The position numbers and the translations under genes are program-made. From Lachnospiraceae bacterium (GTDB lineage: Bacteria; Bacillota; Clostridia; Lachnospirales; Lachnospiraceae), in contig JBNMLP010000008.1 in NCBI GenBank assembly GCA_050874905.1, positions 8,392 to 72,391 on the forward strand: a stretch of DNA of 64,000 bases. The letters are read 5' to 3'. This document shows, one piece after another, positions 6,598 to 56,027 of the stretch. The first letter of the stretch is position 1, and every line of letters begins with the position of its first letter. The notes under the pieces were generated by a model, which saw only the letters and a program-made list of their open reading frames with translations, ran no database searches and was not told the DNA's origin.

Positions 6598-8277
6598 TTA
6601 GAAGAAAAATCCCTTTTTCTTTTTTTCTTTTTTCTCTGCAATATCAGACAAATGTGTTTTCTGCGCCATGCGAAGCCGCATCTGCGTACCTACATCCTTC
6701 GTCAGATTATCTGATCCATTAGAAACAAAGACGTTGTCCTGTGCTGTCTTTAAAGAAAGTTTCACATGCTCCGGCTCTTTCTTGCTCTCCCGTTCTTCAC
6801 GCAACTCCTCTGAAACAGAGATTGGCTTTTTGGGGATCTGCATTGTGGTATGTTGGTGTTCCGCCGGTATATATTCCTTCGCATGCTTATCTCGCAGTGC
6901 AATAAAAAGCTTCAGCTTTTCTTCATTGGCGATCCGCCCGTTTTCCATTAAATGCTGCATTTCCATCTCATTATAAAAAGAACGGATTCCTTTGTAGTTC
7001 AGACAGTAATAGCCCTTTGCCAGAGAATGGCTGACATAGTAATAATTGTCATTGGCATTTAAATGCTCCAAAAGATCAAGTACCGGATAATTTTTTAAAC
7101 TGCCGCCGACCGGCTGAATATAGTTCTGATATACGATCAGATTATTCACCGCATATTTGGCAGACTTGATATCCTGAAGAAGCTGCTCCGGTTCTATATC
7201 GATCACCTTGTTATTATTCGTATCATACAAACGATAACCCATGATCTTACCATCCCGTTCCTGAAACGTTGCGATCATATGAAGATCCTTCACCCTGTTC
7301 TGCTCTGTGGTAAGTGCAAGCCGCAGATCTCTCACACTCTGAAAACGGTCACTTCCCCGTACACGTAAGCCCTTTTCGATCGCCTCACACTGCGCTTTTG
7401 TAATATCTAAATGGAAATCCTGAAGCGGGATATGCTCATCGTCCACCAGACGATCCATCGCCTCCGGCAGAATATGATCCGTCATCATCTTATACATCGT
7501 TGCACAAAGGGCATACACATCCGTCCACGGTCCCTGTTTTCCCTTGGTACGGTACTGCTCCTCCGGTGCATATCCACGTTTTAAAATGATCGTCAGGCTT
7601 TTGCCGCTCTCATCATTCGTCAGACGTGCAGCTCCAAAATCGATCAGCTTAAATGCCCCATCCACCCGGATCATAATATTATCCGGACTGATATCACGAT
7701 GGATCACACCTTTTTCATGAATTTTCTCTAACGCTAACAGCACCGGCATCATCAGCTCGATCGTTTCTGTCGGACTTAAGGTACCATTCGTCTGAAGATA
7801 TTCCTTTAATGTGATTCCTTCCACATACTCCATTACAATGTAGGCAGTATTGTTCTCATGGAAAAAGTCACGGATGGAAACAATTCCTTCCAGATCTCCA
7901 AACTGCTGCAACACCTGTGCCTCATGGGTATATTTGTCAAATCCGTTTTTATAAAGATTCTCATCCTTTTTGTTGTAAAAATATACATAGGTCGAACCGC
8001 CATGGGTACAGTCACGACTCGCCACATTGATTGGAAAATACTCTTTGATCGCAACCGGAGTTTCATTCAGTTTATCCCAGCCAATATAAGTAATACCGAA
8101 GCCGCCCTCTCCGATCACCTTGCCTACAACATAACGGTTGTGCAGCAGAGTTTTGAGCGGAAGACTGCGTGGATTTGGTTCATATGCTTCCTCTGCAAAT
8201 CCACAGTATGGACATACTTCAATATCCTTTGGCACCATTGCCATACATGAATAGCATAAACGTTTTTCTCCGTTCAT
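6598..8277 (-). CDS. Hanks-type Ser/Thr protein kinase with N-terminal double CxxC zinc ribbon and unknown C-terminal domain
   Basis: CYSC/CPYC, IGEGGFGITY, VAIKEY, HRDISPDN, DFG, YAPEEQ; no TM or PASTA seen; ATG 8277 preferred over TTG 8298. Confidence 0.92.
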   Translation of the reverse strand: MNGEKRLCYSCMAMVPKDIEVCPYCGFAEEAYEPNPRSLPLKTLLHNRYVVGKVIGEGGFGITYIGWDKLNETPVAIKEYFPINVASRDCTHGGSTYVYFYNKKDENLYKNGFDKYTHEAQVLQQFGDLEGIVSIRDFFHENNTAYIVMEYVEGITLKEYLQTNGTLSPTETIELMMPVLLALEKIHEKGVIHRDISPDNIMIRVDGAFKLIDFGAARLTNDESGKSLTIILKRGYAPEEQYRTKGKQGPWTDVYALCATMYKMMTDHILPEAMDRLVDDEHIPLQDFHLDITKAQCEAIEKGLRVRGSDRFQSVRDLRLALTTEQNRVKDLHMIATFQERDGKIMGYRLYDTNNNKVIDIEPEQLLQDIKSAKYAVNNLIVYQNYIQPVGGSLKNYPVLDLLEHLNANDNYYYVSHSLAKGYYCLNYKGIRSFYNEMEMQHLMENGRIANEEKLKLFIALRDKHAKEYIPAEHQHTTMQIPKKPISVSEELREERESKKEPEHVKLSLKTAQDNVFVSNGSDNLTKDVGTQMRLRMAQKTHLSDIAEKKEKKKKGFFF

Positions 8278-8447
8278 CCGAAAATCCCCCGATTCCAATC
8301 ATAAAATGCAAAATTATCTAATTTAATAATAACTGGTATAGAGGGAAAATGCAATCACATTTTCTTTGAAACGCAAGAATAGGTATGCTACAATAAACCC
8401 ACAGAAATAAGTATTTTTTAGTTCTTTCCAAAGAAAAGGAGCATGCT

Positions 8448-9659
8448 ATGTCAAAATACCATAAACTAAGCGAAGAAACACAAGCACGCATTTTATCCGA
8501 CCGCAGGGAGCATATCACAAATCCCAGCCGCACACCAGATGAAGCGATCATAAGGAAGAATCCGGATCGGGACAAAGCAAGCCTTTGGCGACCTGCCTTT
8601 GCCCGTGACATTGATAAGATCATGAATCTTCCCTATTACAATCGTTATGCCGATAAAACACAGGTATTTTCTTTCTATAAAAATGATGACATCTGCCGCC
8701 GTTTCTTACACGTGCAGCTTGTTTCCCGCCATGCCAGAAGCATCGGCCGCCTGCTGGGACTAAACGAAGATCTGATCGAAGCCATCGCACTGGGACACGA
8801 TATTGGACACACGCCGTTCGGACATGCCGGAGAACGCCTGTTAAGCCAGAAATTGCAAGAGCATACCGGAAGGTATTTTCATCACAATGTCCACAGCGTA
8901 CGGGTGCTTGAAACGCTTGCCCCGTGGAACATCAGTTTACAGACTCTGGACGGAGTATTATGTCACAACGGAGAACTGGAATTGCAGGAATACCGCCCGG
9001 TTTCAGAGCGAGATTTTGCCACACTTGATAAGATGGTAGAGCAATCCTATACCGATGATGCTGTCATCAAGCAGTTTGTTCCCATGACACTGGAAGGCTG
9101 TGTGGTTCGTGTCTGCGACATTATCGCCTATCTCGGAAAAGATCGCCAAGATGCCTTGCGCCTCGGTATGCTTTCCGATGAATCTCCGTTTTATAATGAT
9201 ACCATCGGACATACCAATCCAGAGATCATCAACAATATGATCGTGAATATCATTGAAAACAGTTACGGAAAACCATATCTGAAAATGGATGATGCCTATT
9301 TTGAAGCATTTAAAAATGCAAAAAAAGAAAATTACAGCATTATTTATCGTCAGGACAGCATGAATGACGTATTTCAGACACAGGTTACCCCTATGTTTGA
9401 TGCTGTTTATGAAGCCCTGTTAAAACAGGCCAAGAGTGGGCAGATCTCCTCTTTGTTCTACAAGCATCACATCGCCTTTTTACAGCAGTGCAATGCCTAT
9501 GTACCGGATTTTTCGCTGGAAGCCTATTTAGAAACAGAGCCAAACCAGCAGGTCGTAGATTATATTGCAAGTATGACCGACGATTACTTTGTAGATCTTT
9601 ATCACACACTCTTTCCAAAAGGAAATTATCACATTCCTTACCGTGGTTATTTCTCTTAA
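8448..9659 (+). CDS. dgt: HD-domain dNTP triphosphohydrolase (dGTPase-like)
   Basis: FARDIDKI, RYADKTQVF, LGHDIGHTPFGHAGE, CHNG, CDIIAY, DYIASMTD motifs. Confidence 0.85.
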   Translation: MSKYHKLSEETQARILSDRREHITNPSRTPDEAIIRKNPDRDKASLWRPAFARDIDKIMNLPYYNRYADKTQVFSFYKNDDICRRFLHVQLVSRHARSIGRLLGLNEDLIEAIALGHDIGHTPFGHAGERLLSQKLQEHTGRYFHHNVHSVRVLETLAPWNISLQTLDGVLCHNGELELQEYRPVSERDFATLDKMVEQSYTDDAVIKQFVPMTLEGCVVRVCDIIAYLGKDRQDALRLGMLSDESPFYNDTIGHTNPEIINNMIVNIIENSYGKPYLKMDDAYFEAFKNAKKENYSIIYRQDSMNDVFQTQVTPMFDAVYEALLKQAKSGQISSLFYKHHIAFLQQCNAYVPDFSLEAYLETEPNQQVVDYIASMTDDYFVDLYHTLFPKGNYHIPYRGYFS

Positions 9660-9694
9660 ACGAAACCGTCTTTATCCGGCTGGTTCAAAAACGC

Positions 9695-9729
9695 AAAAAA
9701 ACAACTCCCGTTATGGAAGTTGTTTTTTT
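9695..9729. terminator. Bidirectional rho-independent terminator
   Basis: AAAAAAACAACTCCC-gtta-TGGAAGTTGTTTTTTT between convergent genes. Confidence 0.75.
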
Positions 9730-9736
9730 ACGTTTA

Positions 9737-10906
9737 TTACATCCAGTCTGCCTTATCGCACTGTAATGCTAAAAATACAAATTCCTCATCTGCCAGAACA
9801 ATGACATCATTGTGTTTCATCGGCATCGGGCCAAATAACAGCTCATCATTGATATAGATCAGATCTCTTGTTTCATCCGGCTGCAGGAAGCATTTTTTGG
9901 AACGTGGATCATAGGTAATGATCGCATGACGATCTCTGCTGATCTTGCTGTTTCCGGATAAACAAATATCCATCGCAGTGGAACGTCCAATGAAATTACG
10001 TCCTTGTTTTACTTCGTAGCTTCTTCCTTTATGTGCACCCTTAATAGCAACCAGCCATCCGATCACCGGATTGGAATTCAGTTCTTCCGGTGTAATGTCA
10101 TCCGGAATACGGCTTGATACGGCACTTGCAACCGTGTCCTTTAACGTCGTCTTCTCTTCTTCCTCCTGTGGCGTTTCTTGTGCCTCAAATGGCTGCGGTT
10201 TTGTTTCGTCTTCCTCTTTGCTCTCTGGCTCTGGTTCCGGTTCTGTTACCGCTTCTGGTTCTTCTGAAACAACCGGCTCCTCTGCTACTGCTGCCGCTGC
10301 CACTGCTTCCGGCTCCTCAGCAGCCACCGGTTCTTCTGTCTTTGCTTCATCCAAAGGAATCTCCGGTTCTGCCGGAGCACTTTCTTCCTCCCCGGAAGAC
10401 TCCGGTTCTTCGATTTCCACAGTATCTTCTTCCAATTCCGGCTCTATGTTCTCCTCTGTCCGCTCCGGCTCTGTATTGACCGCAGATGCAGGAACTTCTT
10501 CCGGCTCGATCACGATCTCCTGCTCTTCCTCGCGTTTTTCCTCATGAGGAACAAATTCTTCTTCCACCTGTAGCTGCTCCACTTTCTCAGCCGCTACGGC
10601 TGCCTCCTGCTCATTTAAACGGATGGTCACCATTTCATCCAGATCTTCTTCCTCGTTCGCTGCCGCCGCTGGTTCCGGTGTTTCCTGCACCGGCTGGCTG
10701 GAAGAAAACATCATACGATCCTCTACTTCCACCTTCTTCTGTGGTTCCGGTTCTTTCACCGGTGCAACCGGCTCCTCTTTTTTGGCATCCGGATCTTCAT
10801 ATGCTACAGTTTCACTCGGTGCCACCTGCATCCCTGTACAGTGTGGACAAGAGGTAAACTTATCCTTATCATAAAAATGCCCTCTCTCACATCTGGCTAA
10901 TCTCAT
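9737..10906 (-). CDS. FHA-domain protein: N-terminal Cys/His zinc knuckle, long Glu/Pro-rich linker, C-terminal FHA
   Basis: RCERGHFY...SCPHC at N-terminus; about 250 aa acidic linker; GWLVAIKG...FIGRS...KISRDRHA FHA core. Confidence 0.85.
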   Translation of the reverse strand: MRLARCERGHFYDKDKFTSCPHCTGMQVAPSETVAYEDPDAKKEEPVAPVKEPEPQKKVEVEDRMMFSSSQPVQETPEPAAAANEEEDLDEMVTIRLNEQEAAVAAEKVEQLQVEEEFVPHEEKREEEQEIVIEPEEVPASAVNTEPERTEENIEPELEEDTVEIEEPESSGEEESAPAEPEIPLDEAKTEEPVAAEEPEAVAAAAVAEEPVVSEEPEAVTEPEPEPESKEEDETKPQPFEAQETPQEEEEKTTLKDTVASAVSSRIPDDITPEELNSNPVIGWLVAIKGAHKGRSYEVKQGRNFIGRSTAMDICLSGNSKISRDRHAIITYDPRSKKCFLQPDETRDLIYINDELLFGPMPMKHNDVIVLADEEFVFLALQCDKADWM

Positions 10907-10927
10907 GTTACATCCTCCTTTATGTTT

Positions 10928-11710
10928 TTATTCTTCTTCCTGATAATAAATGACAACGACCGAAGTATTGTCCTGACTGGTAAGAGAAGACAATACTGCT
11001 GTTTCTGTCAAGGTATCTGCTGCCGTCTGCGCATCCGGGAAATGAGACACACAGATCTCATGAATCTTTTTCTCCGGCAGCGTCCGATAGAGTCCATCAC
11101 TGCACAACAGAACGACATCCTTTGGCTGTAACAGAAACGGCTCTAAGTTAATATCCATCAGCGAAACATTTCCAATTCCTAAAAAACTGATCAATGCTTC
11201 CGCCTTGCTTTCCTCCTGCTCATACACTTCCTTTGTGATCTCGCCGCTTTGCAGTGCCTGATCCAGGCGCATCCGGTAATTATGATCCCGGTTGACTGCC
11301 ATGATCTCTTTTCCACGAAGAATGTAGATCCGGCTGTCCCCCACGGAAAGCCAATAAAGTGCATTCTGCTCAATGATCGCAGCCACTACCGTTGTTCCTG
11401 CACCGAGCAGCTTTCGTTCCTCATCTGCCAGCTCATGCACCACCGTATCCATCTCGATCGCCTCCTGGCGCATGAAATAGGGAATCTTCATGGTGCGATC
11501 CCGTTTCTCGTAATCTTCTGCAAATGTCTGCAATGCGGTCTGGCTCGCAAGTGCGCCGCCATTTAATCCACCCATTCCATCGCAAAGCACTGCCATCGCA
11601 GAATCTTTATGAACTTCTCCATAGACACTGTCCTGTTGATCCGGTCTTGTTCCGATCAGACTGGATACCCCCAGTGACAATCGCCTTGGTTTCTTATTCG
11701 TATCACACAT
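10928..11710 (-). CDS. PP2C-family Ser/Thr phosphatase
   Basis: GTRPDQQD, LCDGMGG, VGDSR, LCSDGL, QDNTS motifs. Confidence 0.92.
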   Translation of the reverse strand: MCDTNKKPRRLSLGVSSLIGTRPDQQDSVYGEVHKDSAMAVLCDGMGGLNGGALASQTALQTFAEDYEKRDRTMKIPYFMRQEAIEMDTVVHELADEERKLLGAGTTVVAAIIEQNALYWLSVGDSRIYILRGKEIMAVNRDHNYRMRLDQALQSGEITKEVYEQEESKAEALISFLGIGNVSLMDINLEPFLLQPKDVVLLCSDGLYRTLPEKKIHEICVSHFPDAQTAADTLTETAVLSSLTSQDNTSVVVIYYQEEE

Positions 11711-12923
11711 GCATGACTCCTACTTTCATAACTGTATTTCTGTCTCCAATGGAAAATGTCTGTCCCGGCAGTAGTTCATGCAGTGTTCCCTGTGCAAGAC
11801 GAACTCCGTTTACATACGTGCCATTCGTGGAATAATCTTCCAGATAAAAACGGTCCTTTTCTGAATCATAGTATATCTCGCAGTGATGTTTGCTCACGTA
11901 AAGATTCTTTGGAATTGCAATATCTGACTGTTTGGAACGTCCTACCGTAATGATCGTATCTTTTAAAATATTAAAGCGGCGTCCGGCATGTTCTCCTTTG
12001 ATCGACTCCACATAAGGAGAGATCACTACCTTATCATCATAGAGCGTGGTATCCAGTCCCAGCTCCACCATAAACTGCTTCATATCCTGCGTTCGCTCCC
12101 GGTAATCAAGCATCAGCGCATGATCTACCGCCCGCGATAATTCCGGAGTCAATTCCGGGAAAATAACACGAAGTGGAATATAGGACTCCCCGCTCAGCCG
12201 CTCCGGAGCAGTCGGGATCATCATTCCGGTCATACAGTAATACATCGTCCCCGCTAAGGAATATACATCGGTAAAGCTGCCCTGCACGCCCCGCTGTGAA
12301 TACTGTTCCGGCGGAGCAAAACCCGGCTTTAACGCAATGGACGCTGTTTCATTGCGCACACTCAGATTGTTTTTGGCATTTCCAAAATCAATCACCCTGA
12401 CTTCATTGTTTGTTGTGATAAAAATGTTATCCGGGCTGACATCCCGATGAAAAATTCCTTTTAATTCATGTACTTTGTTTAAGGCATATGCGACATTTCC
12501 TATGATCGCCAGTGTCTCACCGCTTCCGAGCCGTCCGTTCTTTTCCTTCAGATGTTCCTTGAGCGTCTTTCCCTCCAGATACTGCATAATAAAATACGAA
12601 GTATTGTTCTGGTTGAAGCAGTCCATAACCGGAACGATACCCGGAATGGAATCCAGACGCCTGAGTACATCGGCTTCCTCTAAGAATTTCTTTCGTCCAT
12701 GTTCCAAAGAGGTCACGGAATCTGCTGATTTTGGTTCGATATGATAACCATCCTCTGCACGCCGGCACAGAGAATTTGGGGCATACTCTTTCATTGCATA
12801 CACCTTGTCGGTATAGACATCCAGTACCTTATAGGTGATGCCAAACCCTCCGATGCCTATCACATCCATGATCTTATAACGATTTTTGATCGTCTGGTGT
12901 ATCGGTAATGTGAACTGTCCCAT
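11703..12923 (-). CDS. Ser/Thr protein kinase with C-terminal FHA domain
   Basis: IGIGGFGITY, AMKEY, HRDVSPDN, DFGNA, FAPPEQ; C-terminal VGRS...VSKHH...STNGTYVNG. Confidence 0.92.
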   Translation of the reverse strand: MGQFTLPIHQTIKNRYKIMDVIGIGGFGITYKVLDVYTDKVYAMKEYAPNSLCRRAEDGYHIEPKSADSVTSLEHGRKKFLEEADVLRRLDSIPGIVPVMDCFNQNNTSYFIMQYLEGKTLKEHLKEKNGRLGSGETLAIIGNVAYALNKVHELKGIFHRDVSPDNIFITTNNEVRVIDFGNAKNNLSVRNETASIALKPGFAPPEQYSQRGVQGSFTDVYSLAGTMYYCMTGMMIPTAPERLSGESYIPLRVIFPELTPELSRAVDHALMLDYRERTQDMKQFMVELGLDTTLYDDKVVISPYVESIKGEHAGRRFNILKDTIITVGRSKQSDIAIPKNLYVSKHHCEIYYDSEKDRFYLEDYSTNGTYVNGVRLAQGTLHELLPGQTFSIGDRNTVMKVGVMHV

Positions 12924-16886: not shown

Positions 16887-17897
16887 TTAGAACTTACCAG
16901 CGTCTGCAGCTTCCTGAACAGCTACGGCTACAGCTACCGTCATACCAACCATTGGGTTGTTTCCTGCACCGATCAGACCCATCATCTCTACGTGAGCTGG
17001 TACAGAAGATGATCCTGCGAACTGTGCATCAGAGTGCATACGTCCTAAAGTATCTGTCATACCATAAGAAGCAGGACCTGCTGCCATGTTATCTGGATGT
17101 AAGGTACGTCCTGTACCACCACCGGATGCTACAGAGAAGTATTTCTTACCCTGCTCTAAACACTCTTTCTTGTATGTTCCTGCTACTGGATGCTGGAAAC
17201 GTGTAGGGTTGGTTGAGTTACCAGTGATAGATACATCAACACCCTCTTTGTGCATGATCGCAACACCCTCTGGTACAGAGTTCGCACCATAGCAGTTAAC
17301 CTTTGCACGAAGTCCGTCAGAATATGACTTACGGAATACTTCTTTTACTTCGTTTGTATATGGATCATACTCTGTCTCAACAAAAGTAAATCCGTTGATA
17401 CGGGAAATGATCTGAGCTGCATCTTTTCCTAAACCATTTAAGATAACACGTAAAGGCTCTTTACGAACTTTGTTTGCTTTCTCTGCGATACCGATTGCTC
17501 CCTCAGCAGCAGCGAATGACTCATGTCCTGCTAAGAATGCGAAACATTTGGTATCTTCTTCCAGTAACATCTTACCTAAGTTACCATGTCCTAAACCTAC
17601 TTTACGAGTATCTGCAACAGAACCCGGAATACAGAAAGACTGAAGTCCTTCTCCGATTGCTGCTGCTGCGTCTGCTGCTCTTCTGCATCCCTTCTTGATT
17701 GCGATAGCAGCACCTACTGTATATGCCCAGCAAGCGTTCTCAAAACAGATTGGCTGGATAGCCTTGATCTGATCGTAAACATTAAGACCAGCATCTTTGG
17801 TGATCTTCTCTGCTTCTTCGATAGAGGAGATACCGTAGCTTGCTAATACTTCATTGATCTGTTTAATTCTTCTTTCATATGATTCAAATAATGCCAT
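16887..17897 (-). CDS. GGGtGRT family protein
   Basis: Eponymous SGGGTGRTLHPDN motif; MALFESYERR N-terminus; strongly biased high-expression-type codon usage. Confidence 0.9.
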   Translation of the reverse strand: MALFESYERRIKQINEVLASYGISSIEEAEKITKDAGLNVYDQIKAIQPICFENACWAYTVGAAIAIKKGCRRAADAAAAIGEGLQSFCIPGSVADTRKVGLGHGNLGKMLLEEDTKCFAFLAGHESFAAAEGAIGIAEKANKVRKEPLRVILNGLGKDAAQIISRINGFTFVETEYDPYTNEVKEVFRKSYSDGLRAKVNCYGANSVPEGVAIMHKEGVDVSITGNSTNPTRFQHPVAGTYKKECLEQGKKYFSVASGGGTGRTLHPDNMAAGPASYGMTDTLGRMHSDAQFAGSSSVPAHVEMMGLIGAGNNPMVGMTVAVAVAVQEAADAGKF

Positions 17898-40833: not shown

Positions 40834-41793
40834 TTACTCTGCTAATTCATACGTCTGTTCAAATACATCTGACTTAATAATGTATAGATCAGTTTGATCA
40901 TCGGGACGCACTGCCAGATAATCTCCTGCTTTTCCCAAAAAATATGCACTTTCTTCTCCGACAGGAAATACCTTAGTACGTTTTTCAAGCTGTTTTACTA
41001 AAATTCCGCTTCCCTGTACCGGATAACAGATCCTTGCCAGCTCATCCAGACTGATATACGTGTGTTCTGGAAGAATTTCCACTGCCGGAATATAATCCAG
41101 CATCTGCTCAAATACATCCAACGGCTCTTCTGTTGCCTCATAAGTTCGTTCAAATTTTTCCCGGCTGATGTCATAGACTTCCCCACGACAGCCAATCATA
41201 ATATAGACATCTTTGCCTGTTTTAATGCGCGCCCCGGATTCATTTTCAAACGTTTTTAGCAACACTTCCGTTCCCTCCGGCGCAAGCGCAAGAGATTTCA
41301 CATACGACCAGCCAGAATGTCGTTTTACATAATGCGCATAGGAAGCAATCTCCTCCTCGTGCGTTCCTGCAAAATCTTTTGCCCAGATCACATCACAGGA
41401 ATCAAAATATGCCATAATGCGAGACATGATATAAGAAAGCTCATCCGCCATTTCATTGGCAGAAACTGCTACATGGAGCATGACACTGGATATGATCCCG
41501 GTTGCTTCTCTCTTTGTTTTGCCCTCCTTTACCAGAGCAGCATCTGTTAATATATATTTTAAAAACTCCAGTGCCCGTACCTGATAATTGTCGCTTTGAA
41601 AGAAAAACTCCCAATCCTCTTTTCCCTTTTTCACAAAAAGCACATACTGCCATGAAATAGAAAGTTCTGCCGGGAATTCAATATTTTCACATTCCACCAG
41701 CAAAAGATTTTGTTCCGGATATTGATACGCCTGCCCGCCTGTCACAAAAGGAAAGGCCGCTTCTACCTTTTCAAATCGTTCTTCATATCCCAT
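40834..41793 (-). CDS. Hypothetical protein: putative degenerate DHHA1-like N-terminus plus two repeated GD/G-Y...F..TYE modules
   Basis: Internal repeats YIMIGCRGEVYDISREKFERTYE and GDYLAVRPDDQTDLYIIKSDVFEQTYE; last gene of the five-gene operon. Confidence 0.55.
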   Translation of the reverse strand: MGYEERFEKVEAAFPFVTGGQAYQYPEQNLLLVECENIEFPAELSISWQYVLFVKKGKEDWEFFFQSDNYQVRALEFLKYILTDAALVKEGKTKREATGIISSVMLHVAVSANEMADELSYIMSRIMAYFDSCDVIWAKDFAGTHEEEIASYAHYVKRHSGWSYVKSLALAPEGTEVLLKTFENESGARIKTGKDVYIMIGCRGEVYDISREKFERTYEATEEPLDVFEQMLDYIPAVEILPEHTYISLDELARICYPVQGSGILVKQLEKRTKVFPVGEESAYFLGKAGDYLAVRPDDQTDLYIIKSDVFEQTYELAE

Positions 41794-43323: not shown

Positions 43324-44190
43324 TCAGGATCTTCTCTTTGTAGAGGAATACCAGTTCCCCTTCTTTTTCGTGATTGGCTCCGGAGGCTGCTTACATTTTT
43401 CACATAATGTTCCGGTGCGGATTGGCGCACCACATTTGGTACAGGATAACCGCTCTTTGGCATATTTGGGAATCTCTAAAAATTCTTCCCGCAAAAAATA
43501 TTCTACAGAATCACGCGGCACACCTGTCTCCCGTGCGATCACGACCGCCGAGCGCGCCCCATTCTGTTCCAGATAATTGCGCACCGTCCGCAGATAATCA
43601 TAGGTTTCCTTTCCACAGACCACACACTCATACACACCTACCGCAGTCTCCACAAGTTCTCCTCCGCAATACTGGCATACTGCAGGCTTTGGATTCTTGG
43701 TAAAGACATCGGATTTACGCTTGTAAGGAGAAACATTCCGTAATGGATTTTTGCGAACCACCACCGGCTCTTCCTCCCGTCTTTCCAGATCAAGAAGGGT
43801 GCATAAACGATCTGATAATGTCTTTAACCCTCTCTTCTGATCCTCATAAAACGGAATCGTCTGTACATTGTTAAGATAAAAAGTGAACAGATCATTCATC
43901 GGTACCGAATCTATTTTCACTGGTACGATCTGTTTACGGCAATTGATCGCACTGTCAATTTCCTTTTCCACCCAAATAGAATCCTGTGAATTTTTGGAAA
44001 GTACCAGCAAAAAAACACCACATTCCTTGATAGCACGCGGAATCTCCCGTGCATAATTGGAACCAACAGGAATGGTCTCCGGAGCTTTAAAATAAGTGAT
44101 ATTCAATTCTTTCAAACAAGCTGCAAGTTCCTGTACAAACTGTCCATCTTTCGAGCTATAACTGATAAACACTGTCTTTTCCGTTGCCAT
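43324..44190 (-). CDS. TIR domain fused to zinc-ribbon/HTH/zinc-ribbon (YvyF-like) module
   Basis: VFISYSSKD, IPVGSNY, LVLSKNSQDSIWVEKEI; four CxxC pairs flanking SAVVIARETGVPRDSVEYFLRE; ATG 44190 behind GAGG. Confidence 0.85.
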   Translation of the reverse strand: MATEKTVFISYSSKDGQFVQELAACLKELNITYFKAPETIPVGSNYAREIPRAIKECGVFLLVLSKNSQDSIWVEKEIDSAINCRKQIVPVKIDSVPMNDLFTFYLNNVQTIPFYEDQKRGLKTLSDRLCTLLDLERREEEPVVVRKNPLRNVSPYKRKSDVFTKNPKPAVCQYCGGELVETAVGVYECVVCGKETYDYLRTVRNYLEQNGARSAVVIARETGVPRDSVEYFLREEFLEIPKYAKERLSCTKCGAPIRTGTLCEKCKQPPEPITKKKGNWYSSTKRRS

Positions 44191-44204: not shown

Positions 44205-45206
44205 CTAGGCACAAACTACTTGATTCCGCCCATTTTCCTTTGCTTTATATAAACAGACGTCTGCCTGCTTCACATTCTCATCTGCCGTTTTTGCGAGATT
44301 GACCGGACTGATTCCAAACGACATCGTTACCTTGATTCGGGTATTGTCGTAAATACAGACAGAAGCCTGTACCTGCTGCCTCACCTCTTCTGCAAACTGT
44401 TTTGCTTCTTCCATAGTTCGGTTTGCCAGCAAAAAGACAAATTCTTCTCCGCCCCACCGGATCACCTCATCGCCATCCATCAGATTCTTTCGGAAGATAT
44501 CTGCGATATGAACCAGCACTGCATCTCCTGCATTATGCCCATAGGTGTCATTTACTTTTTTAAAGAAATCAATATCACACATCACAAGTGCCGTCGGACA
44601 AAGTGCATTATTTTTTTTGACCTGGCGGTTGTAAACATCAAAGAAACCGCGGCGGTTCTTTAAACCCGTCAGAGAATCCTCCAGCACCTCTTCTAACAAA
44701 AGATGGGATTCCAATGTCTTATTACAATAAGCTGCTACCATAGCCAGCCGCTTCACATCCGTTTCATCAAAGCCTTTGCCATCCTCATCAATCTTATTGA
44801 TCGCCTGAAAAGCTCCAATAACATCTCCTTTTTCGTTGGTCACCGGAATACAAAGAATGGACTTCGTCACATATCCGGTTTTTTGATCCACTGCGGAATT
44901 GAACCGCTGATCCTCATACGGATTATTAATGATGATCGTTTCTTTGTTTGCCATAGTCACACCGATTACACCCGTACCTTCCGGTACAATGATCTTTCCA
45001 CTGTTAGACGCGGCAAGCGTCCAGTATCTCTTTTTCTTTTTATCCCAATACCAAAACGATGCACGGTCTGAATTCGTCAACGTACGCCCCAGATCTGTGA
45101 TCAGTAAAATCGTTTTGGAAAATCGCCGCTCATTCACCAGACGATTCATATAACTAAAAATCTCTTCTAATAATTCTTCCGCCGAACGTGCCTTTTTTTC
45201 TCCCAT
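44205..45206 (-). CDS. GAF-GGDEF diguanylate cyclase
   Basis: GAF with YEDQRFNSAVDQKTGYVTKSILCIP and AINK...FDETD; DSLTGLKNRR, DIDFFKKVNDTYGHNAGD, RWGGEEF; ATG 45206 preferred over GTG 45218. Confidence 0.93.
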   Translation of the reverse strand: MGEKKARSAEELLEEIFSYMNRLVNERRFSKTILLITDLGRTLTNSDRASFWYWDKKKKRYWTLAASNSGKIIVPEGTGVIGVTMANKETIIINNPYEDQRFNSAVDQKTGYVTKSILCIPVTNEKGDVIGAFQAINKIDEDGKGFDETDVKRLAMVAAYCNKTLESHLLLEEVLEDSLTGLKNRRGFFDVYNRQVKKNNALCPTALVMCDIDFFKKVNDTYGHNAGDAVLVHIADIFRKNLMDGDEVIRWGGEEFVFLLANRTMEEAKQFAEEVRQQVQASVCIYDNTRIKVTMSFGISPVNLAKTADENVKQADVCLYKAKENGRNQVVCA

Positions 45207-45214
45207 ATGCTGCC

Positions 45215-46009
45215 TCACTTTCTTAGTTCTTTGGCTAATGTTTTCATTTCCTGTTCGATATATTTCAGCGAAGCAATCTGATCCTTTGGATCATTTGTTT
45301 CAATCAATACACTGCAGTCCAAAAAATAATTTTTATAATAGGTATCAAATTCCTGCCAGTCAATCTTCCCATTTCCCAGTGCAAGATGCAGATCATGCTG
45401 CAGATCATTGTCGTTGATGTGAATATGTTTCACGTATGGCTGTACGCGCGTGACAAAGTCATGATAGTCTGCTCCATATATTCTTGCATGAGCGTAGTCC
45501 AGACATACCCCGTAATTAGGAAAGGCACCTAGTTCCTTTGAAATCGCTTCTATAATATCAGGAGTACGGTCAAACATGTTCTCCAGATAAATAAACACAT
45601 CAGGATATTCCACAAGCAACTCCTTTAAGCTGCGCACCGTCCCCGAAACAACCTGCGCATCATAGTCCTTTCCATAAAGCATCGGCATCGCATTTGTATG
45701 AAATACAACCCCCCGGCTGCCAAGCTTTCTTCCAATGTCCATACTTTGCCGCATCCGTTCTTTAGAAACAGCAGCAATCCGTTCATCGGAACTAAATGCC
45801 ACAATATCAAAAAAAGCACCATGCATCGTGCTGCCCTGCGGCATTCCCAACTGTTTGTATTTTGAAATAAGCTGTGCTGTTTTATCCGCATCATCTAATA
45901 CAGATGGGATAAAAAAATCATTCGGTTCAAATCCTACATGATATTCCTCTGCAATTGCTTTATACTGTGCGATCGCATCCAGTTTACTAACGATCAGAAC
46001 CCTGCCCAT
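45215..46009 (-). CDS. AP_endonuc_2 / xylose-isomerase-like TIM barrel metalloenzyme
   Basis: MHGAF, VFHT, LENM, LDYAH, HIHIND, HDLH, LIE motifs parallel to EndoIV. Confidence 0.85.
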   Translation of the reverse strand: MGRVLIVSKLDAIAQYKAIAEEYHVGFEPNDFFIPSVLDDADKTAQLISKYKQLGMPQGSTMHGAFFDIVAFSSDERIAAVSKERMRQSMDIGRKLGSRGVVFHTNAMPMLYGKDYDAQVVSGTVRSLKELLVEYPDVFIYLENMFDRTPDIIEAISKELGAFPNYGVCLDYAHARIYGADYHDFVTRVQPYVKHIHINDNDLQHDLHLALGNGKIDWQEFDTYYKNYFLDCSVLIETNDPKDQIASLKYIEQEMKTLAKELRK

Positions 46010-46122: not shown

Positions 46123-46146
46123 AAGGGACATCCTGAGATGTCCCTT
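46123..46146 (-). terminator. Terminator of the MFS gene
   Basis: AAGGGACATC-ctga-GATGTCCCTT with a T run on the minus strand. Confidence 0.75.
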
Positions 46147-51355: not shown

Positions 51356-52342
51356 TCAAAACAAATCTTCACTCACCGGAATCTGCATCATTTCTGTCAG
51401 ATCCCCTTCTTTGTTGATCAGCAGCCAGAGCTTTACGTACATAGCAACCGGAGAAGCCGGAGGCAGGAAATGCAGATCCGTATCCAGTGCCTTCACACTT
51501 TCATACTGCGTCTCTCCTGTTGCGCCCACAACAAACACCGGAATTCCTGCACGGTTCAGCTGCTTCATAAACTTCTCAAAATGAGGAGTCTTGTTGCACA
51601 AAGTTCCGGAATGGTAGGTATTCATTAAAACTGCTTTTGCATCTGAGAACACAGACGGAAGCTGCATGCCAGGATAAGAAAAAATACGCTGCACGGAACG
51701 ATCTTCGCTCAACATTTTCACACCGAGACCCTCTTCCGTACTTTCGCCTTTTTTATATGCTGCATTTTCCTGATAAACGCCATTTTCATAGTAACCAAGA
51801 TACTGGTCAAAAATGCTGTAAATCTCATCACTCAGCGGAAGATGCGGCAGCACTCTTGTCGCCCGGTGAATATATACCTTTTTGTCATGATTCTGGTAGG
51901 CAATATAACATCCCGGTCTTCCCTGATCCAGAATAAAGTCCGCAGCCGCTTCAAAGTTTGCCACACCATTGGCTCTTTCATCCTCCAACACATAATTGCT
52001 GGACGCAAATAAAATCGGGATCTTCGTGTCCGCAAACATGTAATCCATCGCTGCCGCCATATACTGCACAGTATCTGTCCCATGCAGTACAATGATCCCT
52101 TTATAGTCTCTTGACATGTTTTCCCGGATACACGATGCTAAACAGTTGATCGTAGCCGCTGTCACATTTTCACTTAAAATGTAGTACGGATTTACCGTAT
52201 CAAAAAATACATTTTTAAAATCTTCTCTGGAATTCACGATCTGCTCCAGAAGCTGATGTTTTTTTGCTTCATCCACAGCTACATATTCTCCTGATACAGA
52301 ACTTCCAATCGTTCCACCTGTATAGATTACTAAGATCTTCAA
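51356..52342 (-). CDS. ansA: L-asparaginase, type I
   Basis: YTGGTI and HGTDT catalytic Thr motifs; no signal peptide. Confidence 0.85.
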   Translation of the reverse strand: MKILVIYTGGTIGSSVSGEYVAVDEAKKHQLLEQIVNSREDFKNVFFDTVNPYYILSENVTAATINCLASCIRENMSRDYKGIIVLHGTDTVQYMAAAMDYMFADTKIPILFASSNYVLEDERANGVANFEAAADFILDQGRPGCYIAYQNHDKKVYIHRATRVLPHLPLSDEIYSIFDQYLGYYENGVYQENAAYKKGESTEEGLGVKMLSEDRSVQRIFSYPGMQLPSVFSDAKAVLMNTYHSGTLCNKTPHFEKFMKQLNRAGIPVFVVGATGETQYESVKALDTDLHFLPPASPVAMYVKLWLLINKEGDLTEMMQIPVSEDLF

Positions 52343-54483
52343 TCTGATTCCTCCTTTTTGAGTACCGGAGCAATGATCGGTTCAAACACTCTGCGATCCT
52401 GTATTTTTTTATCCGGTACATTTTGTTTTGCCTGCTCGCAGAAATAATCCTGTGAGTTGATACTTTCTTTTCCTCTGCGATCCGGTTTGACGTAACTGCC
52501 GTCCGGATTCAGAATATGGGCTTTCACATTATCCGAAAGTTCTACTTCCAGAATATGTACGACCTCTTCCTTGAGCACTTCATCCTCGACTGGAAAGAGT
52601 ATTTCCACACGGCGGTTTAAATTACGCGGCATCCAGTCCGCACTGGACATATACACTTCATCCCAGCCGTCATTGTAAAAATAATAAATGCGGCTGTGCT
52701 CCAAAAAGTTACCAACAATAGAACGCACTGTAATATTTTCGCTGATACCAGGTATACCTACCTTTAAGCAGCAAATTCCACGTACGATCAGATCAATCTT
52801 TACTCCAGCTGCCGAAGCCTCATAAAGAGCTGCAATGATGCCATGATCGCAAAGGGAATTCATCTTTGCTACAATTCTGGCTTCCTTGCCTTCCTCTGCA
52901 TGCTTTTGCTCCCGTCTGATCAATTCTAAGAAACGATCCCGAAGCCAGATCGGGGCACAGGCAAGCTTGTTCCAGACCGGTGGCTCTGAATAACCGGAAA
53001 GCATATTAAAGACTGCGGTTGCATCCTCACCAATCAGTTCTGAAGCGGTGAACATACCAAGATCTGTATATAATTTTGCAGTACTGTCATTGTAGTTACC
53101 CGTTCCCAGATGTACATAGCGGCGGATACCATCTTCTTCCCGGCGTACCACCAATGTGATCTTACTGTGCGTCTTTAAGCCCACCAGGCCATAAATAACA
53201 TGGCAGCCTGCCTGTTCCAGCTTCTTCGCCCAGATAATATTATTTTCCTCGTCAAAACGTGCTTTTAATTCTACTAAAACCGTGACCTGCTTTCCGTTTT
53301 CTGCTGCCTGCGCAAGTGCTGCAATGATCGGGGAATGTCCCGATACGCGGTATAACGTCTGCTTAATCGCCAGCACAGAAGGATCTTTTGCCGCAAGCTT
53401 TACAAAGTCCACGACCGGATCAAACGTTTCATACGGATGGTGCAGTAAAATGTCACGCTTTCGGATCTGCTCAAACAGATTCTGATCCGGCACCAGCATC
53501 TTTGCCGGCTGTGGCACCCACTTTTTGTAACGCAGGTGTTCAAATTCCGGCATACCGCTGATCTTCATAAGAAAAGTCAGATCCAACGGTCCCTGAATGG
53601 AAAAAACATCCTCGTCATTAACGGACAGCTGTTTTTTCAATTCTTTCAGCAGTTTTTTGTCTGCATGCGCCTCGATCTCCAACTTGATCACCTCGCCCCA
53701 TTGACGACGTTTTAACTGTTTTTCAATCTCCTGCAGCAGATCTTCTGCCTCTTCCTCATCGATGCTTAGATCTGCATTTCTCATAATACGATAAGGATGT
53801 GCACAAATGACACGATTATTCAAAAAGAGCTTTTGCAAGTTCTTTTCTATGATCTCCTCTAAGAGGATCACCTTTTTTCCTTCCCCTTCTTCTGCTGGAA
53901 GTGGCACGATCCTCGGAAGCACTGACGGCACCTGTACAGTGGCAAGATCATACTCTCCACCATGATCCCGGTTCGAGATCAACGCAGCAATGTTCAGTGT
54001 CTTATTTCTGACCAGAGGAAATGGTCTTGAGGAATCTACCGCCATCGGTGTCAGTACCGGATAAACATTTTTCTCAAAGTAGTCATCCACATAGACAGCC
54101 TGTTTTTCATTCAACTGTTCATAATGCTCGATCAAATGGAAACCTTCTTTTTTCATGGCAGGAAGCAGCATCCGGTTTAAAGTATGATACTGATCCTCCA
54201 TCAACTGATGGGTTTTTTCATTGATCGCAGCAAGCTGTTCTTTTGCCGTCATACCGGCAATATCTTTTTTGGTATATCCGGCATGCTCCTGATCCTTTAA
54301 CGATGCCACACGCACCATAAAAAATTCATCCAGATTCGATGCCGTAATACTAAGAAATTTGATCCGTTCAAACAGTGGTATGCTCTTATCCTGCGCCTCA
54401 TGCAGCACCCGGTAATTGAAATCAATCCACGACAGTTCCCGGTTAGAGTAATATTCCGGTCTGGTATACTTCTTATCTGCCAT
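52339..54483 (-). CDS. ppk1: Polyphosphate kinase 1
   Basis: NRELSW, NLDEFFMVRVA, LHHPYE, ELKARFDE, KTHSK, GNFLEHSR, SADWMPRNL. Confidence 0.97.
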   Translation of the reverse strand: MADKKYTRPEYYSNRELSWIDFNYRVLHEAQDKSIPLFERIKFLSITASNLDEFFMVRVASLKDQEHAGYTKKDIAGMTAKEQLAAINEKTHQLMEDQYHTLNRMLLPAMKKEGFHLIEHYEQLNEKQAVYVDDYFEKNVYPVLTPMAVDSSRPFPLVRNKTLNIAALISNRDHGGEYDLATVQVPSVLPRIVPLPAEEGEGKKVILLEEIIEKNLQKLFLNNRVICAHPYRIMRNADLSIDEEEAEDLLQEIEKQLKRRQWGEVIKLEIEAHADKKLLKELKKQLSVNDEDVFSIQGPLDLTFLMKISGMPEFEHLRYKKWVPQPAKMLVPDQNLFEQIRKRDILLHHPYETFDPVVDFVKLAAKDPSVLAIKQTLYRVSGHSPIIAALAQAAENGKQVTVLVELKARFDEENNIIWAKKLEQAGCHVIYGLVGLKTHSKITLVVRREEDGIRRYVHLGTGNYNDSTAKLYTDLGMFTASELIGEDATAVFNMLSGYSEPPVWNKLACAPIWLRDRFLELIRREQKHAEEGKEARIVAKMNSLCDHGIIAALYEASAAGVKIDLIVRGICCLKVGIPGISENITVRSIVGNFLEHSRIYYFYNDGWDEVYMSSADWMPRNLNRRVEILFPVEDEVLKEEVVHILEVELSDNVKAHILNPDGSYVKPDRRGKESINSQDYFCEQAKQNVPDKKIQDRRVFEPIIAPVLKKEESD

Positions 54484-56027
54484 TAAAACGACCTCCTTTG
54501 CTTGATCATCGGACGGATTCCATAAACTTCTTCAAAGAAATCTGCCTTACTTTTAAACAGTGCCTTTTCTAAAGAAATGTCTTCGATCGCATCAGTAGAA
54601 AGGATCAATTTGTTCTCATGAAGTGCCACCTTGATCTTGGTGATCTTTTGCTTGTGGCTGCGGTCTAAGGCATTGGCAACACGTAAGATTGCCGTCAGCT
54701 TGCTGATCAATATGTATTCTTCCCTGCTAAGTTCCCCTTCTATCCGGTCATAAGACGGAAGCCAGACCGTATTATACTTCACCAAATTGGCAACCAGCTG
54801 TCTTTCCTTATGAGAAAGGCCAATGATCTCTGTCCCCATGATGATATTGTAGCCATCCGCTCCACCAGAATTCATATTTACATACTTGCCACAGTCATGC
54901 AGGATCACCGCAAGCTGCAACAGCAGGCGGGAACGCTTATTTAACCCGTGGATCTTCTTCATCCGGTCAAAAATCTCCAATGCGATCACCATAACATCAT
55001 TGATATGTGTTTTATTACAATGGTACCGTTTTGCCAGATTTTTGGAAATGGAAAGAATATCCTCCTCAAAATTGTGATTCAGCACCACCTTCTTCTTCTG
55101 GTCTGCATAATCTGCTGCGATCGCATCACACAGATCGATCCCCGGCGTCCAGATAAGCTCTGCTTTGGAACGATCCAAAAACATTTTATAAACGATTGCA
55201 GCCGGAAGTAAAAGATTCGCTACCTCCACCGGAATTCCGTATTTCATGCTCATATGCTGCGGCTTGATATGCTGTACCCGTTCGTAGATCAGGTTGATCT
55301 GCTCCTGAGTAACGGATTTTTTAATGGAAAGTTCCGGCACGAGCTTCACCAGTGCAGAAATCTCATCCCCTACCGCAATGATATTTTTTATAGTATGGTC
55401 TTTCATATAAAAGTTCTCAAAAGTAGACAACTCATTGCCAATATACTCTTTGATCATGTCCTGAAAACCACTGACACGTTCCTGTTCGTTCTCCAGCAAT
55501 CCCTGCACCCGCATCGCTCCAATGCGCAGTTTCTGCGATACTGCAAGTGCCTGTTTATCAAATATGGAAATCTGTACACTTCCCGCCCCCATATCCAGTA
55601 TCGCTGTATCCTTCTGGATCACCGCATTAAAATCGGATGTATGGCTGGCAATTCCCTTATACATCAGGTAATGTCGCTCAGAGTTACTTACAATGCGGAC
55701 AGAAAGTCCGGTACGAAGTGCGATCTGATCCAAGATTACTTCGCGGTTTGCCGCTTCACGGATCGCCGTCGAACCATAGGCAAGATACTCCGTTACCTTG
55801 TATTCTTTCATTTTCTCTTTAAACCGCAGCAATACCTGACAAAGTTCCTCTACCAGTTCATAAGAGATTTTCCCGATCCGGAATGTATCTCTTCCAAGTG
55901 CCAGGTATTGACTGACATAATCCAATGTTTTGATCCCTTTCGACGCACTGATCTGATAGATCTTCATCGAAACATCATTTGACCCCACATCAATCGCTGC
56001 AAACAATGTATATGCCATAATCATCAC
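54483..56027 (-). CDS. ppx: Ppx/GppA-family exopolyphosphatase with C-terminal HD domain
   Basis: AIDVGSN, STAIREAAN, DMGAGSVQ, LHDCGK; upstream of ppk1. Confidence 0.85.
   Translation of the reverse strand: MMIMAYTLFAAIDVGSNDVSMKIYQISASKGIKTLDYVSQYLALGRDTFRIGKISYELVEELCQVLLRFKEKMKEYKVTEYLAYGSTAIREAANREVILDQIALRTGLSVRIVSNSERHYLMYKGIASHTSDFNAVIQKDTAILDMGAGSVQISIFDKQALAVSQKLRIGAMRVQGLLENEQERVSGFQDMIKEYIGNELSTFENFYMKDHTIKNIIAVGDEISALVKLVPELSIKKSVTQEQINLIYERVQHIKPQHMSMKYGIPVEVANLLLPAAIVYKMFLDRSKAELIWTPGIDLCDAIAADYADQKKKVVLNHNFEEDILSISKNLAKRYHCNKTHINDVMVIALEIFDRMKKIHGLNKRSRLLLQLAVILHDCGKYVNMNSGGADGYNIIMGTEIIGLSHKERQLVANLVKYNTVWLPSYDRIEGELSREEYILISKLTAILRVANALDRSHKQKITKIKVALHENKLILSTDAIEDISLEKALFKSKADFFEEVYGIRPMIKQRRSF

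Follow-up and report, generated by a model that had tools for sequence, protein, structure and literature searches.

A stretch of 64,000 nucleotides (nt) from a Lachnospiraceae bacterium (contig JBNMLP010000008.1, positions 8,392 to 72,391; hereafter the window) encodes a protein in which a TIR domain is fused to a C-terminal module resembling the flagellar-locus protein YvyF. The only database name of this protein is "TIR domain-containing protein", and an identical protein with the same neighbors is present on a metagenome contig. A first-pass annotation had drawn attention to the fusion itself. What it missed is the main feature of the locus: an invariant operon partnership of the fusion gene with genes for a class III nucleotide cyclase and a protein of unknown function, plus swappable GGDEF or histidine kinase inputs. 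The features are collected in Table 1.

A three-gene core with variable inputs

We compared 86 loci from 80 fetched species genomes, counting neighbors by tblastn with the cassette proteins of the window. The cyclase gene lies directly downstream of the TIR gene in all 86 loci. It is followed in 83 by the gene for a 319-amino-acid (aa) protein, and at least two of the remaining three loci are cut by the end of a contig. Directly upstream of the TIR gene, 65 loci have a gene for a GAF-GGDEF protein. A TIM-barrel gene stands directly upstream of the GGDEF gene in 62 loci and almost always occurs together with it. In the window, all cassette genes are on the same strand and closely packed. The TIM stop codon overlaps the GGDEF start by 4 nt, gaps of 14 nt and 23 nt separate GGDEF from TIR and TIR from cyclase, and the cyclase and 319-aa genes abut. 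The terminator of an upstream MFS gene marks the edge of the cassette, leaving about 110 nt of intergenic sequence before the TIM start codon.

Seven loci without the TIM-GGDEF pair (L041, L049, L059, L061, L063, L069 and L073; for example, L049:5277-7973) have a hybrid histidine kinase gene of about 895 codons (HisKA_7TM-HisKA-HATPase-REC-Hpt) that ends at the TIR start. A kinase of this family is also encoded nearby in seven further loci (14 in total), twice in the order kinase-TIM-GGDEF-TIR. This suggests that input modules are interchangeable on the same three-gene core. Sensor or input domains and nucleotide cyclases are encoded together in one conserved, tightly spaced predicted unit, as in a second-messenger operon.

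A k-mer and inverted-repeat search of 56 upstream regions returned a sigma-A-type extended -10 sequence, TGGTAAAAT, with TTGGAA upstream of it, plus start-codon context. The element TTCATGGTAAAAT occurs 44–64 nt upstream of the TIM start in eight loci (L035, L038, L043, L050, L052, L056, L081 and L082), preceded in at least four of them by a TTGGAA-like -35, as would be expected if a sigma-A extended -10 promoter drives the cassette. We place the start of the fusion gene at the ATG at 44190, which has a Shine-Dalgarno-like GTGAGG 6 nt before it. The open reading frame (ORF) finder listed a TTG eight codons upstream, at 44214. This alternative has no homolog support and is disfavored because homologs begin with an MA..K-type N-terminus like the MATEK of the window protein.

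Table 1. Features of the TIR-YvyF cassette in the window (strand - is the reverse strand).
Feature	Position	Strand	Basis
TIR-YvyF-like fusion gene	43324..44190	-	288 aa, stop codon included; ORF list
TIR domain, aa 7-123	43822..44172	-	Pfam TIR_2, PDB sequence and Foldseek matches
E77 codon, predicted catalytic glutamate (second E of WVEKE)	43960..43962	-	AbTIR alignment, conservation
Disordered low-complexity linker, about aa 133-165	43696..43794	-	Predicted local distance difference test (pLDDT) and ortholog lengths
YvyF-like module: Zn ribbon 1, three-helix helix-turn-helix (HTH), LEIP motif, Zn ribbon 2	43387..43680	-	TIGR03826, alignments, BLASTP
Basic C-terminal tail KKKGNWYSSTKRRS, with conserved aromatic residue	43327..43386	-	Ortholog alignment
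Class III cyclase, partner 1, 501 aa	41795..43300	-	Pfam Guanylate_cyc E = 2.3e-28
319-aa protein of unknown function, partner 2	40834..41793	-	83/86 loci
GAF-GGDEF diguanylate cyclase, frequent upstream partner	44205..45218	-	Pfam GGDEF E = 1.4e-41, GAF E = 5.5e-13
TIM barrel, xylose-isomerase-like (AP_endonuc_2), frequent first gene	45215..46009	-	Pfam E = 2e-22
Terminator hairpin of upstream MFS gene	46123..46146	-	10-bp stem, then T run

The two halves of the fusion protein

AlphaFold2 modeling of the fusion, with 38 homologs as input, gave a mean pLDDT of 80.5. The predicted order is a TIR alpha/beta fold, a disordered stretch at residues 138–160 with pLDDT below 50, a three-stranded ribbon, three helices (199–210, 215–222 and 226–234, so that the HTH spans residues 199–234) and a second ribbon. 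The linkers of orthologs measure 27 to 101 aa, with a median of 60.

Both domain assignments are correct, with matches far above the chance level. The gathering cut-off of Pfam TIR_2 (PF13676) is 28 bits; the TIR domain scored 77.6 bits (E = 1.5e-21) and covered profile positions 1–119 of 122, and the WVEKEI context that had been pointed out earlier lies at residues 73–78. Among solved structures, family-profile matches included Cat1 (3.6e-8) and the NADase AbTIR (8.7e-6), and Foldseek matches to the TIR fold included SPARTA TIR-APAZ (3e-7), SARM1 and BtpA. The PADLOC TIR models matched were Aga_TIR, ThsB and PDC-S66, and PADLOC gave no system-specific match besides such generic TIR and cyclase models.

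In a HMMER alignment, E77 aligned with the glutamate of the W-x3-E motif of AbTIR. W73, E75, K76 and E77 are invariant in 86 of 86 orthologs, as are F8, S10, S44, Y46, E49, S71, D79 and the FYLNNVQ segment. The NADase-type motifs FISYSS and SxxSxxSxW-x3-E and the APEMIPxGSNYAREIP loop are absolutely conserved. Judged by its sequence, the domain has an intact NADase-type active site and apparently cleaves NAD+. This degree of conservation fits an enzyme rather than a mere scaffold.

TIR domains are assembly scaffolds in animal signaling. The fusion might be a plain transcription factor, with a non-catalytic TIR domain serving as the oligomerization or ligand-sensing scaffold for a DNA-binding YvyF-like module. 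The HTH module is net basic and carries a basic tail, and the flexible linker fits a two-module regulator. We consider this explanation very improbable, since a scaffold would have no need of an absolutely conserved catalytic glutamate and NADase-type motifs. In addition, no conserved palindromic operator was found in the 56 regions upstream of the cassette, so autoregulatory DNA binding is unsupported.

The first-pass annotation had matched the C-terminal pattern to YvyF (TIGR03826) from recall. The homology is real, with the TIGR03826 profile matching residues 171–268 at E = 3.1e-14 (53.1 bits; profile positions 5–102 of 137). Equivalog status is another matter: the curated cut-off is 124.15 bits, and because 53 bits falls below it, the C-terminal half is a YvyF homolog and not a member of the equivalog. 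Stand-alone clostridial relatives are also under this cut-off, at 56–116 bits. The cysteine pairs CQYC (172–175), CVVC (189–192), CTKC (250–253) and CEKC (263–266) are all where they were said to be. Ribbon 1 comprises C172, C175, C189 and C192 and ribbon 2 comprises C250, C253, C263 and C266, and all eight cysteines are invariant in the 86 orthologs.

Residues 163–275, searched against 1.84 billion representative proteins, returned 725 clusters. About 30–35 of these are TIR fusions, of about 250–355 aa. Most are stand-alone proteins of 130–160 aa that align over the whole module at 33–41% identity and themselves match TIGR03826 over its full length with 56–84 bits. The eight cysteines, a DDFGKV-like helix, a TGV turn, the RLEIP motif and the second ribbon are all in register between the fusion and these proteins. 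YvyF-like modules without a TIR domain were also seen on four unannotated human fecal phage contigs (MT835502.1, MT836418.1, MT836955.1 and MT837500.1), at 29–33% identity over residues 172–267/271.

With tblastn we reached a YvyF protein in a flagellar locus, that of Acetoanaerobium noterae (141 aa; 116 bits to TIGR03826). Its gene lies in the order recD2-comFC-yvyF-flgM-flgN-flgK-flgL-fliW-csrA, which we take to be the order around B. subtilis yvyF as well. The record for this locus (L094; NZ_CP154629.1, 2396499-2406903) was deposited as a 2.6-Mb "plasmid", is almost unannotated and looks like a chromosome. BLASTP aligned the A. noterae protein with the C-terminus of the window protein at E = 2e-14, and the alignment includes the basic tail (KKKGNWYSSTKRR against KKKGESFHIKQRH). 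The fusion tail lines up with that of stand-alone YvyF, which has the pattern KKKG-x-F/M-basic. Of the 86 orthologs, 60 have W at tail position 280, 14 have Y and 11 have a gap. A sequence-profile search of the PDB with the YvyF module gave nothing significant (best E about 0.02, to Z-alpha, TFE winged helices and eL43-type ribbons), and Foldseek with the full-length model returned TIR matches only. The literature that we searched does not describe a function for YvyF or TIGR03826.

This end-to-end homology to a protein encoded between comFC and flgM-flgN-flgK-flgL-fliW-csrA raises the possibility that the fusion is a flagellar or motility regulator, that is, a YvyF paralog that would act on YvyF's target near FlgM/sigma-28 and put motility under the control of NAD+, cyclic di-GMP (c-di-GMP) and cyclic GMP (cGMP). 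Carriers include Roseburia, Lachnospira and Butyrivibrio, which are known to be flagellated, and c-di-GMP synthesis is encoded in the same operon. Among 10 upstream ORFs examined in loci without TIM-GGDEF, one was fliD and one was a gene for a methyl-accepting chemotaxis protein (MCP), each directly upstream. A 2026 preprint reports that yvyF is consistently tied to flagellar loci. However, no examined locus lies inside a flagellar operon, the flanks of the 86 loci show no recurring flagellar gene family, and no flagellar gene was found among the window ORFs scanned. We found the closest stand-alone Lachnospiraceae YvyF paralogs, two on long contigs, both outside flagellar loci, and no stand-alone YvyF in the 86 fetched loci or the window. 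Three other stand-alone relatives were on short contigs that gave no view of their context. We regard this explanation as quite improbable. The link to the flagellar regulon or to nucleic-acid binding that the first-pass annotation had proposed is only weakly hinted at.

A stand-alone YvyF-like paralog in Pseudobutyrivibrio xylanivorans (CP043028.1; L091:7252-7980) follows an MCP gene and a gene for a 242-aa protein. The latter has a faint FliT-like match (E = 0.007), a weak hint at motility for the Lachnospiraceae stand-alone subfamily.

Partner proteins, inheritance and a possible signaling role

The cyclase consists of a receiver-like N-terminal domain of 130 aa, a coiled coil, the class III domain and a C-terminal domain of about 115 aa. 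Its closest PDB match is the guanylate cyclase Cya2 (2w01; E about 1e-44 to 1e-45), and the cyclase domains are about 45–50% identical, as estimated by eye from the printed alignment. The metal-binding Asp205 and Asp249 are invariant, as are N326, R330, E245 and D61. The first specificity residue, E245, is also Glu in Cya2 and is Lys in CyaB and in the engineered adenylate cyclase variant 6fht; the second, N319, is present in 81 of 83 sequences. Because of Glu245 and Asn319 at these positions, we infer that the enzyme prefers GTP or is otherwise not an adenylate cyclase. Within the receiver-like domain, D61 is conserved in 85 of 85 sequences, K113 in 78 of 85 and P114 in 82 of 85. The beta-1 acidic pair is not conserved, and the cyclase homologs have a weak Response_reg match. 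It is plausible that the Hpt-bearing kinase encoded upstream in some loci is the phosphodonor to this receiver. The C-terminal domain is moderately conserved and matches no family. PilZ was considered for it and rejected, as there was no Pfam match and no conserved RxxxR motif.

In the GGDEF protein, the GGEEF motif and the metal-binding Asp are invariant and the RxxD I-site is absent. These residues suggest that the protein is an active diguanylate cyclase controlled by its GAF domain. By manual alignment, it also has an Asp equivalent to PleD D344. We set aside the possibility of a Hypr-GGDEF (a cGAMP synthase) and treated the protein as an ordinary diguanylate cyclase.

The 319-aa protein was found only in this cassette. 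It has just 141 homolog clusters, unnamed or hypothetical save for three with a phosphoglycolate phosphatase label from the Joint Genome Institute. There was no PDB sequence match, and Pfam matched neither the window protein nor its homolog clusters, although PF14083 (PGDYG) was weakly matched by 16 of 36 members (best E = 8e-4). The AlphaFold2 model (pLDDT 90.3; predicted template modeling score 0.82) comprises an N-terminal beta domain, a DHHA1-like alpha/beta domain and two tandem PGDYG-like beta domains, which correspond to an internal repeat of residues 168–232 and 250–319 (hhalign E = 3.7e-5). Weak, partial Foldseek matches in the PDB were to the DHHA1 domains of RecJ and NrnA and to AlaRS C-Ala (E of 5e-3 or worse). 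Since DHHA1 domains bind nucleotides in DHH phosphoesterases, a nucleotide-binding role for the 319-aa protein is a reasonable guess.

The first-pass annotation had called the architecture unusual. Our literature searches returned no description of it, but it is common inside one family: there are 632 homolog clusters at 90% identity, nearly all of the best 120 being full length, and at least 133 species encode a relative in a scan of one genome per GTDB species. The 80 fetched genomes carry Lachnospiraceae or related Clostridia labels, except for two that are apparently mislabeled. Named carrier genera are Roseburia, Lachnospira, Butyrivibrio, Butyribacter, Jutongia, Kineothrix, Acetatifactor and Bovifimicola. 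Searches of 50,697 phage and 72,556 plasmid records found no full-length copy.

The cassette proteins appear to be inherited as a unit, because their pairwise identities are strongly correlated (r = 0.76–0.89). Nine syntenic loci flanked by AsnRS (L025, L034, L041, L049, L059, L061, L063, L069 and L073) allowed a comparison with a housekeeping gene. There, the cassette proteins are about 55–63% identical on average and AsnRS about 93%, yet cassette distances track AsnRS distances (r about 0.85), which together argue for vertical inheritance with unusually fast evolution. The position of the cassette is syntenic in related species, and there is no anomaly in GC content.

The neighbors in the window belong to the core chromosome (NrdD, Ser/Thr kinases, topoisomerase, SHMT, SpoIIP, ComEC, Asd, HydF, rplT, ThrRS, PPK1, Ppx and AspRS), and no flagellar, phage or defense gene was found among the window ORFs scanned. 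The MFS and HydF genes that flank the cassette here recur only in the same or a sister species. Elsewhere the flanks are lineage-specific housekeeping genes (AsnRS, AsnA, ABC ATPases, MatE, LDH and ATP synthase), an HD-GYP-type protein flanks seven loci, and Mrr plus a DinG-like helicase flank seven. On the evidence of the sequences, the cassette is a lineage-specific, vertically inherited part of the core chromosome of Lachnospiraceae.

Some further observations concern the surroundings. In two loci from Acetatifactor metagenome-assembled genomes (L040:3259-4671 and L031:15839-16780), a second, different TIR protein is encoded a few kb from the cassette, and one of the two is a 471-aa TIR-DUF6273 fusion. 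A two-domain PPK2 gene lies upstream of the TIR-YvyF gene in L027:6382-7863 (directly) and L083:5763-7334, and the window has PPK1 and Ppx genes (52339-56027) about 8 kb from the cassette. A second AP_endonuc_2 TIM barrel is encoded at 680-1549, far from the cassette, and scores 195 bits against 80.6 bits for the cassette copy. The window also contains a eukaryotic-type Ser/Thr kinase cluster at 6598-12923 (a 566-aa kinase, an HD-domain protein on the + strand, an FHA protein and a kinase-FHA fusion) and, at 16887-17897, a member of the GGGtGRT family (PF14057, 628 bits), which is conserved and functionally uncharacterized.

Our tentatively favored reading, which falls a little short of an even chance, is that TIR-YvyF is the output component of a vertically inherited nucleotide-second-messenger signaling operon of Lachnospiraceae. 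Under this proposal, environmental or metabolic cues (a ligand of GAF; kinase to Hpt to cyclase Asp61) would determine how much c-di-GMP and cyclic mononucleotide (probably cGMP) is present. Sensing of these nucleotides would fall to the C-terminal domain of the cyclase and/or to the 319-aa protein. TIR activity generally needs oligomerization, and it is this step that the sensed nucleotides may control, and hence NAD+ cleavage or the production of a signal, perhaps ADP-ribose-derived. The YvyF-like module would direct this activity to DNA or to the binding partner of YvyF. What follows would be an altered cell state, in the form of changed gene expression, possibly a shift between motility and sessility, or growth arrest, and not dedicated phage defense. 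About a quarter of the loci lack the GGDEF gene, so c-di-GMP cannot be an obligatory activator.

Several points weigh against this proposal. The TIR domain is nearest to defense-type NADases (SPARTA, Cat1, AbTIR and ThsB), adjacent genes for a TIR protein and a class III cyclase are the Pycsar layout, and the PADLOC PycC model matches the cyclase at E = 8.4e-24. Uncharacterized viral or phage proteins share the fold of the 319-aa protein, with E down to 2e-8. The fast divergence of the cassette relative to AsnRS is typical of conflict genes. HTH recognition-helix residues differ among orthologs, no receptor for any of the nucleotides was identified by sequence, and the operator search described above gave no conserved palindrome. 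Finally, all sequencing runs found to contain the locus are DNA or untyped metagenome runs, none of them RNA.

The obvious competitor is a Pycsar- or Thoeris-like abortive infection system, in which the cyclase would respond to infection by making a cyclic nucleotide. This would activate the TIR protein directly or via the 319-aa protein, leading to NAD+ depletion or a toxic signal, with the YvyF-like module as the sensor of phage nucleic acid or protein. The closeness of the TIR domain to the Aga_TIR, ThsB and PDC-S66 models as well as to the solved defense enzymes, its invariant catalytic glutamate and the PycC match of the cyclase are all what one would expect of such a system. So are the uncharacterized phage structural relatives of the 319-aa protein, the YvyF-like modules on fecal phage contigs, and the Mrr nuclease and DinG-like helicase that adjoin seven loci. 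In particular, the explanation stays live because the cassette evolves so fast.

Even so, we rate defense as unlikely. A cyclic-nucleotide-binding domain is missing from the TIR protein, and no ThsA-type partner (SIR2, Macro, SLOG or transmembrane) was found among the window neighbors or in loci with annotated neighbors. The cyclase matches Cya2-type enzymes (E about 1e-45) more closely than the PycC models and has a receiver-like domain. The inputs are GAF, GGDEF and 7TM histidine kinase sensors. The cassette is confined to one bacterial family, occupies stable syntenic housekeeping positions and is absent from the phage and plasmid collections.

A signaling role would have wider consequences. 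Bacterial TIR domains are currently understood as phage-defense or virulence enzymes. A TIR enzyme at stable chromosomal positions in over 130 species of Lachnospiraceae would suggest that bacteria also use TIR/NAD+ chemistry for endogenous regulation, and this is strengthened by its constant pairing with a receiver-regulated guanylate-cyclase-like enzyme and usually a diguanylate cyclase. The full claim would be that of a first housekeeping, non-immune bacterial TIR pathway, wired to two-component, cGMP and c-di-GMP signaling, targeted by YvyF and controlling gene expression or a motile/sessile switch; in this complete form it is somewhat unlikely.

The cassette also offers a testable entry to two uncharacterized families. 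One is YvyF, which to our knowledge has been linked to flagellar loci for decades without a known function and would here gain a first functional handle. The other is the PGDYG/DHHA1-like 319-aa protein. If the cassette serves in defense, it would represent a new Pycsar-like type in which the effector is unusual and sensor kinases exert control. In either case the carriers are dominant gut commensals, and the signaling reading, if true, would concern abundant butyrate producers of the human gut such as Roseburia and Lachnospira.

Relation to known systems

The closest relative of the C-terminal half is YvyF itself (TIGR03826; in B. subtilis, yvyF lies upstream of flgM). The C-terminal 120 aa of the fusion have the whole YvyF layout, from the ribbons to the basic tail. 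The fusion differs from YvyF in its N-terminal TIR domain and linker, in a shorter spacer before the tail and in its location outside flagellar loci.

In gene layout, the cassette resembles Pycsar: a class III-type cyclase gene that matches a PycC hidden Markov model stands beside a gene whose TIR product has a catalytic glutamate. Cyclases of the PycC clade produce cCMP or cUMP, and Pycsar effectors combine a cyclic-nucleotide-binding domain with a TIR or transmembrane part. Unlike those effectors, the fusion has no cyclic-nucleotide-binding domain by Pfam, NCBIfam or PADLOC and has a YvyF-like C-terminus instead. The cassette cyclase is receiver-like with Cya2-like residues, a third gene is obligatory, and there are GGDEF and histidine kinase inputs. 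The cassette is moreover vertically inherited in one family and absent from mobile elements. With Thoeris ThsB, AbTIR, Cat1 and SPARTA TIR-APAZ the fusion shares the TIR fold and the W-x3-E motif. It has no ThsA, CARF or Argonaute partner and carries the fused YvyF module instead.

The cyclase resembles Cya2 of Synechocystis and receiver-regulated class III cyclases in keeping all catalytic residues, with Glu at the Lys/Glu position. It differs from Cya2 in its second specificity residue, which is Asn and not Gly, Cys, Asp or Thr, in the extra C-terminal domain of about 115 aa and in its obligate pairing with a TIR protein. There is also a conceptual likeness to bacterial TIR-STING, a c-di-GMP-activated TIR effector: here, too, a TIR enzyme is fused to a non-catalytic module and encoded beside a c-di-GMP-producing enzyme, although the fusion has no STING domain.

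Literature searches for YvyF, TIGR03826, PGDYG and TIR with GGDEF, cyclase, Lachnospiraceae or Roseburia returned no description of the fusion or the cassette. Both domains of the protein are of known kinds. What is new is that they are fused and that the fusion is constantly partnered by a PGDYG/DHHA1-like protein and a guanylate-cyclase-like enzyme of the receiver-regulated type.

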